The notes under the pieces: generated by a model
Seen by the model: only the letters and a program-made list of their open reading frames with translations
Database searches by the model: none
Told to the model about the DNA's origin: nothing
Assembly (NCBI GenBank): GCA_964016885.1
Contig: OZ024741.1
Span: forward strand, 407,030,001 to 407,094,000
Length of the DNA stretch: 64,000 nt
From: Eledone cirrhosa
Taxonomy: Eukaryota
Direction: 5' to 3'
Translations under genes and position numbers: made by a program
Shown here: piece after piece, positions 2,529-49,610 of the stretch
Layout: each line of letters begins with the position of its first letter
Position numbering within the stretch: the stretch's first letter is position 1

Positions 2529-2893
2529 TGTTATATTTCGGAGGGCCATGCTGCCAATAAAAACACACGCACTTGTTGGTTTTCACTTCAATTTATTATA
2601 AATTTCTGGTTGGTTGATTGGTTCGATAGCTGGAAGGTTGTTCATATATTGTCAAATGTCATTCGTCACACATTCTGTGACCTCCTAAGTGACTAGGATT
2701 TTATTTTGTATCTCTCCTTTCTTCTGTCCTACACACAAAAAACAAGATGATGTAGGAAAGAACAAATGAGAGACACAAAATAAAAACCTAGTCACTCAGG
2801 AGGTCACAGAATGTGTGACAAAAGAGCTTTGACAATACATAAACAATAATTCTGGCAATATTACGCAAATATGACCCTCCCCAAGTATAACAA
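2529..2893. mobile_element. Diverged inverted-repeat PLE-end insert (family C) with decayed HHRs
   Basis: Arms ~2637-2732 and ~2752-2846 are reverse complements; terminus gaccctccccaagtataacaata shared with 9784, 11578 and 26163 copies. Confidence 0.7.
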
Positions 2894-3001
2894 TATATAT
2901 ATATATATATATATGAAAAAGGTAAACGGAAATAACAAGACAATCGGTACAGTATATGGAAAGTATATATTAGGTTAACGCTTGATATAGCAGGAAGAGG
3001 G

Positions 3002-3037
3002 TCTTAACGTTTCGGACGCTAGTCCTTCATCAGAAGA
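3002..3037 (-). ncRNA. Minimal type I hammerhead ribozyme
   Basis: Minus strand TCTT-CTGATGA-aGGAC tagc GTCC-GAAA-CG-TT-AAGA; palindromic ACGT stem III; within a TA-flanked insert 2915-3092. Confidence 0.75.
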
Positions 3038-3705
3038 AAGAATGACAAATAAGATAGATTGAGGGGATGGGCGGGTTGGAATTGGAAAATAAATATATAT
3101 ATATATATATATGGGATATTGGTATAAAGAAATAGGAACGTGGATATCAGAATAATTGAAGCATTAAAAACGATCTTATGGTATTTGGTTGTGGATTTTG
3201 GTAGAGAATCTGGAACCTGGATGAGGATTTCTTAACCACTCGTCTACGTTATGTACAAATTAACATCTCTACGAACAGAAAACAGCAAGCTCCACTCTCC
3301 CATACATAAGACGATGTTTTATTCGACACTTCACTAATGTACTTGTCATGTCACCTGGTAATGGCAATTGAATTCCTACAGAACTGTTGGCTAAATATCA
3401 GTCATCTACCTTAGCTACAGCAGGTGAATATCATTATTAATGACTTCTCTCAACTTTGTCAAATTACCTTTTAGTCTTGCAATATTTCTAACACCCACAT
3501 AAACAGATATACACTCACAGACGTACATAGTCACAGGGATATATATATATATATATATATATATATATATATATATATATATATATATATATATATATAT
3601 ATATATATATATATATACATGTTTGCGTGTTTGTGTGTGTGTGTATAAAATACATACATGTATTTGATATATACATACATACACGTATATATATATATAT
3701 ATATA

Positions 3706-4290
3706 TTAAAATAACAGATTAAAGTTTAAGCAAAGAATCGCTGCTTTCATCCTTAAGGGGATTTTCTGAAACTAACAAAGTCAATCTGTGAACGCAGAAG
3801 TGAATATTTCAAAAGACTTTGCAACCGCAGGAAGACAGGAAGACGATACTTTGGTTCGTGGAAACGTTCCCTGGCAAAGAACGGGAAAAAAGCGAATATA
3901 ATACGTCATTAATAGGAGCGGTGAAAAACAATTACACGCAAAGACAAAACCACGTTTATGGTATAAAAGAGGTTGTAGACTAACATTCTATTAGGTGGTT
4001 CACCGCTCCAAATAATGACGTATTATATTCGTTTTTTCCCGTTCTTTGCCAGGGAACGTTTCCACGAACCAAAGTATCGTCTTCCTGTCTTCCTCCGGTT
4101 GCAAAGTTTTTTTAAATTGACTTTGTTAGTTTCAGAAGATCCCGTTAAGGGTGAAAGCAGCGATTCTTTGCTTAAACTTTAATCTGTTACTTTAATAAAT
4201 ATTTGCTCTACGGTTCTTATATATTTGATATATATTTATCCTTATCGAGCCCTCTTTGGATTTCAGTCTTCAAATTTATTATTATTACTA
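3706..4290. mobile_element. Palindromic non-coding insert of the Naiad family A 3' end (pLTR), HHR at 4128-4178 (+)
   Basis: Arms 3706-3925 and 4000-4194 inverted, plus tail to 4290; near-identical to 36232-36620; (TA)n on both sides. Confidence 0.88.
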
Positions 4291-4330
4291 TATATATATA
4301 TATATATATATATATATATATATATATATA

Positions 4331-5079
4331 TCATAAATCATGTCCTTAGAATTATTAGATAAAATATATACCATTTCCTCTCCCAATTAGCATAATTAAC
4401 CATATAAAAAATCAATTAGACCAAGCTATACGAAGAAAGGCTCTTATGAAGAAATCTCCGACAAATAACCGAAAGTGGCCTCTTCGCGGTGGCCCCAATA
4501 GAGTATTTATCCAACATTTCGACAGCATGTAGTAACTAACTAAATATACCATCAACCATACACAATTAGGTGTAAAATTAAACTGAGAAGAAATGTGTAC
4601 ATACCGTAATTATATCTCTACCATGGTTTCATCCGTATTTTTAGAGATCCAATTAATAGGAATGTCTTGAGTTAGGATTCATCAGGAGACAAACTCAAAA
4701 TTAGACATTTAGTTTTCCAACGTGATCGCGCCAAAATTAGATTAAAAAATGGCTAAGAATCGCAATGTGGCTGTGGTCAAGCTAGAAAGAATGTGATTGG
4801 TTGCTTACGGCGGGTAGGCTTGTTGCTAGAAAGCGCAGCCAAATATCGCCAAATTGTATCTCAACCTAACGGAAGATTATTAAATATAAAGGTTTACATA
4901 TACATAAAGTTATAGATATATATGTTGCAACCGGTCACTTTTTGGCTCTATGAAGAATTAATAAATTAAATAATAAGAGTAATATATCATAAATCATGTC
5001 CTTAGAATTATTAGATAAAATATATACAATTTCCTCTCCCAATTAGCATAATTAACCATATAAAAAATCAATTAGACCA
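4331..5079 (-). mobile_element. Retrozyme-like / non-autonomous PLE unit (~656 bp monomer plus 93 bp terminal direct repeat)
   Basis: 4331-4423 repeated at 4987-5079; internal HHR; (TA)n on both sides; no ORF. Confidence 0.7.
4614..4689 (-). ncRNA. Type I hammerhead ribozyme
   Basis: Minus strand TCTC-CTGATGA-ATCC...GGAT-GAAA-CCATGG-TA-GAGA; all three stems pair. Confidence 0.8.
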
Positions 5080-5103
5080 TATATATATATATATATATAT
5101 ATT

Positions 5104-47440: not shown

Positions 47441-47599
47441 TGAAGTTGGCACCCTTAACTCACAGTTGGGTGCGGATGCATTCATGTATATATGTGTGTG
47501 TCCGCATGTATCTGTGTGTTTCTAAATATATTGTTATATATATATATATATATATATATATATATATATATATATATATATATATATATATATATAATA

Positions 47600-47798
47600 A
47601 TAGTAATAATAATAAATTTGAAAACTAAAATCCAAAGAGGGCTCGATAAGGATAAACATAATTCAAATATATAAGAACCCTAGAGCAAATATTTATTGAA
47701 ATAACAGATTAAAGTTTAAGCAAAGAATCGTTGCTTTCACTCTAAGGGTGAAAGCAGCTATTCTTTGCTTAAACTTTAATCTGTTATTTTAATAAATA
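47600..47798. mobile_element. Mini palindrome of Naiad family A end
   Basis: Tail + arm 47600-47740, inverted arm 47748-47798; fold-back point lies at the HHR stem II loop. Confidence 0.85.
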
Positions 47799-48424
47799 AA
47801 TAAAAATATATATGTATATATATATATATATATATATATATATATATATATATATATATATATATATATATATATATATATATATATGCGTGTGTACGTA
47901 TATGTGCGTGTGTGTCTGTGTGTGTGTATATATATATATCGTTAGCTGTTAGTGTTAAAATGTCCTAACTTGCTACTTCGTGTGTTAAGGATTTCACTGC
48001 CATGTTTAACTAACACCTACGAATGATTACTTGTCGTTTGTAGACTGATGTCAAAAAAATTTTCATCAACTCACGTGGGATAAGTAATAGGTTATATTTT
48101 AGGACATTTTCATGAATCTAGTAAAGCAATCATAGCACATCAAAGAGATGTTATATTTAGATACAAATTGGTTTATATATTATTTACAATAGATTTATGA
48201 TATCTATTCCATAAATCCTCCATTAGCTTCAATAACTGCTTCCATATTGGCTCTGAAAGTTTGACATGTTAAGTATGCTGCCATATGTTATTGTCCCTTT
48301 AATGATATTGCTTATGTTAATGCAGGTACAGATAAATACTCCGCCTTACTTATTTAGTGTGTCGTCAATAACTCTTATACAAACCTCCGTATTTCTAGTT
48401 GTCTACTATATATATATGTATATG

Positions 48425-48705
48425 TGTTAGTTCACCATACTGAAAACAATTGTTTCAGCTTATGCGGATCTTCAGCTCAGACTGGTCTTGGTTATACGGG
48501 ACAGGAAGACCAACCGTTTGTTGAAGAAGAACCGATTGTTCTTCCTGTCCCGTAAAACCAAGACCAGTCCGAGCTGAAGATCTGCATGAGGTGAAACAAC
48601 TGTTCTCGGTATGGTGAAGTAACTGTAGAGTTACCACTTCTACCAAACTCGACCCATGGACTGAGTGCTCTACCACTACGGATATTTCCTTCCAGTGTTC
48701 TACCC
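48425..48705. mobile_element. Palindromic PLE-end insert (family E); HHR at 48569-48609 (+) and inverted copy at 48441-48480
   Basis: CCGAG-CTGAAGA-tCT gcatg AGgt-GAAA-CAacTG-TT-CTCGG. Confidence 0.78.
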
Positions 48706-48800
48706 CTCTCTCTCTCTCTCTCTCTCTCTCTCTCTCTCTCTATATATATATATATATATATATATATATATATATATATATATATATATATATATATATA

Positions 48801-49090
48801 AAGTATAAAAGAGAAAACAGGTAAGTATTAAGAGAAGGATTTAATCCAGGTATTTACGACCGTTTCATAGGTAAGTGCAACCTTATATTGCTATACTGCA
48901 AATAGCAGCCACTCAATTATAATTGTTGTCACAGTCCAAATTTTGAAAATTTGGACTGTGACAACAATTATAATTGAGTGGCTGCTATTTGCAGTATAGC
49001 AATATAAGGTTGCACTTACCAATGAAACGGTCGTAAATACCTGGATTAAATCCTTCTCTTAATACTTACCTGTTTTCTCTTTTATACTTT
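48801..49090. repeat. Nearly perfect 290-bp palindrome with essentially no spacer; HHR 3' half GAAA CGGTCG TA on each arm
   Basis: Centre gtccaaatttt-g-aaaatttggac at ~48945; flanked by (TA)n. Confidence 0.9.
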
Positions 49091-49194
49091 ATATATATAT
49101 ATATATATATATATATATATATATATATATATATATATATATATATAGAGAGAGAGAGAGAGAGAGAGAGAGAGAGAGAGAGAGATAGATAGAT

Positions 49195-49610
49195 GTATTA
49201 ATTCAAAATATTAACAAAAATAGACATTAATGTGATCAACTATATTTTATTATACATATTTCAGAGGTACTGAGCTAACTTCAACAGTACGTCCTCATCA
49301 GATAAAACAAGATGATGCATGACATACCCTGACATAGAAGATGGTTAAGATTCAGTCATGGTAGTGAGTAAGATATGACAAAACTCAATATTTATATACC
49401 TTAAGATTGAGACATGAAAAAACTTACATATAATACAAATAATACAGAGGGTGCGTGTAACCTCTGTATCATATGTATTAAATGTCTATTTTTGTTAATA
49501 TTTTGAATTAATATTAATAACTCCGGGAAACCATACCTGTTGAGTGATTCCAATCTATTGTAAAACTCATTCTTTGATTTATTCATTGAACCTTGTTTAA
49601 CCTTTAAATA
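49195..49610 (-). mobile_element. PLE-end insert with HHR (49245-49307 minus) and short inverted arm
   Basis: TTTTAT-CTGATGA-GG.cGTACTG..CAGTAC.CTct-GAAA-TATGTA-TA-ATAAAA; 49197-49231 inverted at 49478-49512. Confidence 0.75.

Follow-up and report, generated by a model that had tools for sequence, protein, structure and literature searches.

Palindromes in the (TA)n runs of the Eledone cirrhosa genome are head-to-head Penelope-like element insertions whose geometry points to twin priming

Between the (TA)n runs of a 64,000-nt stretch of Eledone cirrhosa DNA (the window, by which the whole of this stretch is meant; its contig is 416 Mb long, in an assembly of 3.0 Gb) there are palindromes in which an arm is followed by its inverted copy. 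What are they, and what kind of insertion makes them? An earlier note, made from the letters alone, took them for a local field of structures resembling miniature inverted-repeat transposable elements (MITEs), formed by fold-back insertion of the hammerhead-bearing 3′ ends of Penelope-like elements (PLEs). When the window was split at its (TA)n runs and the pieces self-aligned, inverted repeats between such runs were recovered at all 15 of the places named there, and derivation from PLEs, targeting to TA and the dominance of the inverted form were all borne out. The palindromes are real head-to-head PLE insertions in (TA)n, present genome-wide in tens of thousands of copies. Their geometry does not fit fold-back as the mechanism. 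They probably come from twin target-primed reverse transcription at both nicks of the target, with the inner ends of the two products then joined.

The idea of a local field did not survive comparison with the rest of the genome. TA-abutting inverted repeats number 16 in the window and 48 in 400 kb sampled from four other contigs, the density in the window being about twice that of the rest sampled. Counted as exact matches to short patterns, family B (a 24-mer) occurs 52,348 times in the genome, family A 34,300 times, family C 11,165 times and one subfamily of family D 4,841 times. Opposite-strand joints of the families found at 46360 and 46795 are present, at other positions, in contigs of a second sample and in those of two other organisms, which come from other studies. 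Run X1, from which the assembly itself may have been made, has family B joints at 17115/17208, 17126/17199, 17153/17193 and 17155/17196. Run X19 and the raw-read run X22 gave no alignment. Support from reads, on which the earlier note made the reality of the palindromes depend, comes from such joints and not from the window centres 46610 and 47080, which are bridged by no contig among the public-run matches listed.

The arms of 30 family B loci end at either of two sites 80 nts apart: S1, which leaves the arm tail-less, and S2, which leaves it with a tail. Family B has 26,989 tail-less S1 ends and 27,102 tail read-throughs genome-wide. How the two kinds of end pair was counted on the first 98 and 100 matches listed (two S1 rows past the range of the tail list being omitted; these and the other samples of inserts were drawn from the start of contig C1), and the proportions are those of the matches listed. 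Among 58 outward-facing pairs within 600 nts, 56 join an S1 end to a tailed end, one is S1 with S1 and one tail with tail, while free choice would give about 29 of the mixed kind; inward-facing pairs number two. The two arms share a subfamily variant in 54 of the 58 pairs, against 15.5 on shuffling (maximum 28 in 5,000). The same picture comes from 90 consecutive S1 arms of family B. A script resolved 69 of them; the other 21 (two rows dropped at gaps in the reference and 19 lacking the tail motif) were read by eye, and with the help of fetched loci 11 more were found to have a tailed partner. In all, 80 have an inverted tailed partner, two are the ends of one S1–S1 insert and eight are partnerless. 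The inverted form is thus the dominant insertion product. TA is present at the tailed end of 67 of the 69 resolved inserts (their S1 ends had been selected on TA). Where the parent sequence reads through S1 and S2, it continues with TA or TAT at both sites in families A, B and C and, in D, at S1, the S2 read-throughs resting on one or two copies per family. The tail, which the earlier note placed in the shared architecture, was not seen in its examples at 24006, 48801 and 8862.

Arm lengths discriminate between mechanisms. Fold-back of a cDNA that started in the tail cannot make the tail-less arm reach further upstream than the tailed one. Yet in the 69 family B inserts the tail-less arm is the longer in 33 (by at least 5 nts in 21), the shorter in 26 and equal in 10. 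Five of the 69 have a partner consisting of tail only, with no sequence overlap between the arms, as do at least 8 of 30 family A loci. The family B element of the window is such a non-overlapping pair, its 2.26-kb tail-less arm being joined through a 3-nt overlap to an inverted, tail-only remnant of 19 nts (11650–11668). Mapping against a reference gave noise where arms are long, and other analyses took its place. They yielded 19 long inserts of four families: the A and C elements of the window and 17 of 20 fetched loci, hand-picked as opposite-strand pairs 2–6 kb apart (L230, with both ends tail-less, L240, with both tailed, and L237, not one insert, were set aside). In these the longer arm, usually the one that bears the open reading frame (ORF), is tail-less in 11 and tailed in 8. 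Fold-back geometry is present in 21 of the 69 short inserts, and in just four together with microhomology of 2 nts or more. Junction overlap in family B is a little higher than under a random-join null, with 0 nts in 32% vs 55% and at least 2 nts in 28% vs 13%, and 22 junctions have inserted bases, including A/T runs and templated copies. Runs of 13–15 A or T stand at the palindrome centres of L082, L087, L284 and L330, and short templated duplications at those of L283, L319 and L328; both suggest slippage or joining of the polymerase-theta type.

The inner end of many short arms falls on a single base. Of the 90 family B arms, 65 stop 50–63 nts upstream of S1, with the mode at 58, the A of TTAGTC. 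In the genome 10,886 family B arms begin exactly at this adenine after a base other than T, and 12,289 copies read TTTAGTC. Sequencing depth falls across the site about 19-fold in run X1 and about 33-fold in run X4 (the tail-rich depth in X4 is not counted as evidence). Centres at which both arms reach 58 nts with one base between them number 591; in the first 50 listed that base was judged by eye to be C or G in 44, where the parent usually has T. With two bases between the arms there are 98, the first 50 of which read, by eye, CG in 5, GC in none, CC/GG in 10, CT/AG in 7, GT/AC in 6, AA/TT in 13 and others in 9. Family A served as an independent test of the extra G. Its short arms reach about 68 nts, and 2,734 begin at the adenine of TTAGTT after a base other than T; in the first 100 listed that base is G in 56, A in 23 and C in 21 (p about 1e-9 against a background of 27%). 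The shared TTAGTY resembles the invertebrate Initiator. For Penelope an Initiator and start site within the pseudo-long terminal repeat (pLTR) have been described (PMC2377424), and in L1 an untemplated 5′ G has been attributed to copying of the cap (PMC9341517).

The fixed ends, the one-tail rule, the arm lengths, the junctions, the stop base and the excess of G are all observed. Probably they arise as follows. The reverse transcriptase (RT)-endonuclease, as a predicted dimer, would nick both (TA)n strands and prime a cDNA at each of the two nicks. One of these cDNAs would begin at S1, the proximal site on the RNA, and lack the tail, the other at the distal S2 and include it, each site lying just before a UA(U) able to pair with the target and both cDNAs being apparently copied from the same RNA or source. 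Loading at the copies of these sites near the 5′ end of the transcript would let synthesis run off at the capped start, leaving the 58-nt or 68-nt arms and the extra G; loading on the 3′ pLTR would allow either arm to be kilobases long. The inner ends would be joined with 0–3 nts of microhomology or short insertions. To the observations this adds the dimer, priming on both strands, the transcription start, the cap as origin of the G and the pathway of joining. We lean towards the short products being run-offs at a capped 5′ end. In the PAc in vitro system (PMC11167929) a PLE protein cuts and extends both strands of an AT-rich target. It does so from two start sites, with the tail between them, and a dimer has been proposed from modelling; this fits twin priming.

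Several points weigh against the twin-priming and run-off model. The same in vitro study reports that the RT starts are not homologous to the cut DNA, whereas here TA/TAT follows both S1 and S2, and finds no difference in start sites between the strands. The evidence for families A to D is genomic in kind rather than from RNA, mapped 5′ ends or biochemistry. Palindromes are unstable, and later deletions at their centres could yield some of the asymmetry between arms. The base before the family B stop is C in 47, G in 43 and A in 10, with C as frequent as G; a lone central C or G in this family could also derive from a minority TCAGTC parent, and 5 of 19 family A cases of G that were viewed can be explained by the partner arm as well. 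A clear stop site is missing in family C, and in D there is just a broad edge at about 160–186 nts. The one-tail rule has its exceptions, namely the S1–S1 and the tail–tail pair of the 58, L230, L240 and the 8 partnerless arms of 90, and the palindromes at 24006 and 48801 are tail-less. A target duplication cannot be recognised within (TA)n.

Fold-back, or self-priming, would have a single cDNA (or an antisense template) fold and copy itself back, with S1 as the point where the second arm stops or is cut. It has been proposed for PLEs (PMC3846280), it would explain the variant common to both arms in 54 of 58 pairs and the mild excess of microhomology, and S1, being followed by TAT like the target, could be recut. 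Against it stand the inserts whose longer arm is tail-less (33 of the 69 short ones and 11 of the 19 long ones, the excess often amounting to kilobases and taking in the ORF), the tail-only partners of families A and B, the B element of the window included, and the finding that its geometry and microhomology coincide in only four junctions. As a general route it is already contradicted unless later deletion is common, and we judge it improbable. Deletion is at the heart of another explanation, that long perfect palindromes arise by any route and have their centres trimmed by host hairpin-opening and deletion, so that asymmetry and the short class are secondary. Recurrent junctions across subfamilies and templated insertions at centres, both of which look like repair products, and the general instability of palindromes speak for it. 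It leaves unexplained a stop at one base in 10,886 copies, a G absent from the parent and short arms that end at the stop site opposite arms of kilobases (L232). While later deletion may blur small differences between arms, it accounts poorly for the kilobase and tail-only cases, and we give trimming as the general cause little credence.

Twin priming may also be right and the stop have a different cause from a transcription start: a block by RNA structure, a splice site or a nuclease cut. In the ribozyme, the distal hairpin of helix II contains the family B stop, and helix I has the family A stop at its 5′ edge; the context of each is a pyrimidine-rich AG, and a few family B arms (5 of 90, at 18–21 nts) end near the ribozyme cut. 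Set against this, both stops are the A of TTAGTY, the arms retain the AG, and a cap agrees with the surplus of G in A and with C or G at the centres in B; such a cause is possible, and we doubt it. It is hardly credible that we are dealing with MITE-like DNA transposons that spread as units, or with artefacts of assembly or library, although the inverted repeats at the termini, the TA context and the many copies speak for it. The uniform copies of a MITE class were not found: centres and arm lengths vary from copy to copy, variation of centres arguing against amplification as a unit, and the likeness to MITEs proposed earlier is one of shape. The arms are moreover the pLTR ends of RT-bearing elements, the two arms of one insert differ by point changes (identity below 100%), and the opposite-strand joints recur in runs of other organisms and studies. 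For families A to D this explanation is refuted; the palindrome at 48801 may still fit it. Assignment to the non-LTR retrozymes was likewise rejected, the pairs being inverted, with one same-strand neighbour within 600 nts among 198 arms.

To which PLEs do the families belong? Pfam gave no match for A, B and D and a weak RVT_1 match for C, so that assignment rests on motifs, and by these the main palindrome families appear to be Hydra-type (A, B and D) and Neptune-like (C). A YRDD RT motif and a C-terminal YIG..R..H region occur in A, B and D, in the single-ORF layout of endonuclease-bearing (EN+) PLEs, and the pLTR, the inverted 5′-truncated copy and the one-sided tail typical of these are present. 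Families A and B have DKT and, in place of RWK, RWR; B also has CxxC and CxH, and CxCx5C is common to all three (the D copy in the alignment has no N-terminus). The Hydra clade of C-terminal EN+ PLEs (PMC8557442) has all of these, with hammerheads and a (TA)n target, and A, B and D thus fit its definition, by motifs rather than by a tree. For the Neptune clade the mark is a CX2-5CxxC linker ahead of a C-terminal GIY-YIG that has internal cysteines. In L226 and L227 family C shows DKSG and, as CTNRKCIIC, a CX4CxxC linker, and on the same kind of evidence it is probably Neptune-like, Nematis being also possible. The earlier note linked three families, A, B and C, to coding PLEs in the window, and they do match the ends of these at the places it gave; same-strand coding links exist also for the families of 35658 (D), 23270, 2529 and 5103. 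For 24006, 41142, 42514, 43030, 46360, 46795, 48425 and 48801 a search of 1.45 Mb gave no such link, which is no proof of absence. The family D ORF (L221–L225) has an asparagine-rich insert between RT and thumb or linker, resembling the N-rich inserts reported for rotifer PLEs.

The hammerheads bear on a further proposal of the earlier note. A descriptor allowing variant cores gave 13 matches in the first 50 kb and none in each of six shuffles. Every match inside palindromes points outward, as had been said; the whole or half ribozyme said to be on most arms is less general. Of the 15 named examples, 8 have a complete fold on one arm or both, and in 3 of these (17071, 35658 and 46795) both arms have it. 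The descriptor found none in 2529, 8862, 24006, 40610, 46360 and 47600 (8862 and 47600 have the 3′ half only), and 48801 has a single weak match at a level that shuffles reach. A type I hammerhead is predicted to fold in the pLTR of A, B and D; C has a CTGACGA core and failed the descriptor. Variant cores are frequent: U3-A8, known from Schistosoma PLEs (PMC4209133), in B and 46795, and CAGAAGA in all 103 of 103 family A matches (overlapping loci kept). In the family A core, for instance at 36381–36387 on the minus strand, U4 is replaced by A, and the core begins exactly at the putative transcription start. Several family B subfamilies have a self-complementary octamer in loop III, which suggests dimerisation of the ribozyme. 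An Rfam scan of the window gave 111 sub-threshold matches, mostly to microRNA (miRNA) hairpins, and no hammerhead family. Because the stop site falls inside loop II, short family B arms mostly lack the 5′ half of the core. This tells against the suggestion of hairpin RNA with ribozyme-defined ends, as does modelled folding: in three palindromes the 7-nt core had a probability of being unpaired of 0.00, all of it in the long duplex, compared with 0.38–0.98 for the arm alone. Any one palindrome transcript has a sense ribozyme on one arm only. RNA ends set by the ribozyme are not predicted by the folding, and long hairpin RNA is possible if the palindromes are transcribed.

Much of the form has been seen before. 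Inverted 5′-truncated PLE copies with one-sided tails are published (PMC8557442; PMC3846280; PMC2377424), head-to-head and with junction palindromes as here. There inversion and tail are optional and were read as self-priming (the junction palindromes in PMC3846280) or as endonuclease resolution, and the tails are 30–40 nts; here the one-tail rule is near strict, tails are about 50–170 nts and either arm may be the longer. The main text of the PAc study (PMC11167929) draws no link to inverted insertions. L1 twin priming (PMC11702581) also takes its second primer from the opposite strand and has microhomology at the inversion junction. In L1, however, that primer anneals internally beside the end of the first cDNA and the pieces barely overlap, whereas here both cDNAs would start at fixed 3′-side sites and copy the same stretch, which gives palindromes. 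Non-LTR retrozymes (bioRxiv 10.64898/2026.07.22.740005) are likewise non-coding hammerhead-bearing PLE derivatives, but are direct tandems with complete ribozymes rather than inverted pairs with often half ribozymes. The dual minimal hammerheads of Schistosoma are also paired on opposite strands, 100–700 bp apart, and also have the U3-A8 core (PMC4209133); they are a passing mention in the part of that text drawn on, with neither structure nor mechanism. The part drawn on of an octopus repeat annotation (PMC13282606) does not mention palindromes. In the literature searched (subscription journals being mostly outside it, and supplements perhaps describing similar structures) no prior twin-priming model for Penelope was found. 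What is new here are quantitative rules of geometry, which contradict fold-back and point to twin priming with cap run-off.

Table 1. PLE-derived elements and palindromes of the window (positions are those of the window)
Feature	Position	Strand	Remarks
C-like family palindrome with coding link	2529–2892		degenerate hammerhead; last 46 nts match family C
Family A palindrome	3707–4288		right-hand tail; one complete hammerhead
Further coding PLE fragment	5103–6580	−	33% to family B endonuclease region; arms 5261–5465/6373–6577; tail; absent from the earlier note's list
Family B mini-palindrome	8860–8977		half hammerheads; no tail seen
Family C Neptune-like (by motifs) PLE fragment	9785–11619	−	long ORF-bearing arm tail-less (minus); inverted tailed arm 11267–11619
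Family B Hydra-type (by motifs) PLE	11650–13929	+	5′-truncated, frameshifted
Family B palindrome	17072–17960		tail 17072–17151; both arms with complete U3-A8 hammerheads; stop site resembling an Initiator at about 17209
D-like palindrome	23260–23876		canonical hammerhead; arms 23253–23529/23596–23872
Symmetric palindrome	24006–24935		no tail and no hammerhead found
Family D palindrome	35660–36116		91-nt left tail; canonical hammerheads on both arms
Family A Hydra-type (by motifs) PLE	36233–40000	−	tail 36233–36325 (S2 end); 3′ pLTR with CAGAAGA hammerhead; ORF 37515–39452, continuing past a stop; 28 nts left of an upstream tail; inverted tail-less arm 39512–40000
Family B palindrome, older	40611–41116		left tail; mutated cores
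Palindrome	42515–42943		tail; canonical hammerhead; coding link not found in 1.45 Mb
Palindrome	43029–43306		80-nt tail; hammerhead; coding link not found in 1.45 Mb
Palindrome	46360–46769		98-nt tail; no hammerhead found; coding link not found in 1.45 Mb
Palindrome	46797–47534		173-nt tail; U3-A8 hammerheads on both arms; tail-less arm holds the spacer and is the longer
Family A mini-palindrome	47597–47798		tail; half hammerheads
Palindrome	48426–48740		tail; minimal canonical hammerhead; relative at 26968–27196
Near-perfect symmetric palindrome	48801–49089		tail-less; no family assigned

Beyond the 15 examples named in the earlier note, the window has inverted repeats at 5103, 31503, 41142, 45267 and 49180. 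The switch of sequence in the right arm of the 2529 palindrome (2847–2892) marks a chimera or a nested insertion. One homologue of the 24006 palindrome (L342:1637-1858) follows an ORF end resembling a GIY-YIG C-terminus, so that there may be PLE families that lack a tail. At 20241–21133, on the minus strand, there is an endonuclease fragment of another PLE family (GIY-YIG Pfam match, E 9e-7). A 185-nt repeat like a short interspersed element at 22286–22470 recurs at about 14 other places in the window (72–94% identity); as it occurs on both strands, it makes some spurious long-range inverted repeats. From 50034 to 64000, after an (ATCT)n run, about four L1/Tx1-like non-LTR copies (APE-RT-zf-RVT), 72–80% alike, follow one another, one with a 1156-aa ORF2 at 53852–57322; they may be a microsatellite-targeted tandem array. 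Elsewhere short PLE palindromes have themselves been amplified as tandem arrays (C1:42149511-42150389 and C1:27009485-27010052), a possible route to satellites.

The origin of the tandem and inverted structures of PLEs and of the one-sided tail has been called open (PMC8557442; PMC11167929). The natural products in this genome, tens of thousands in number, have a geometry by which insertion models can be told apart, and from which exact predictions follow: two start sites, a single tail for each insert, the stop base and the extra G. Whether EN+ PLEs insert by twin priming as a rule is to us an evenly balanced matter. An asymmetric RT-endonuclease dimer would then assign one subunit to each RNA start site and target strand, and loading at the 5′ end would give paired cap-ended cDNAs and from them short palindromes. 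If so, one model, in place of self-priming, would explain the tail together with the inverted pLTR and the palindromes at junctions, and PLE transcription starts would be mappable from DNA alone. Independently of this, a retrotransposon is seen here as a major source of short DNA palindromes, which repeat finders could label as MITEs or miRNA hairpins.

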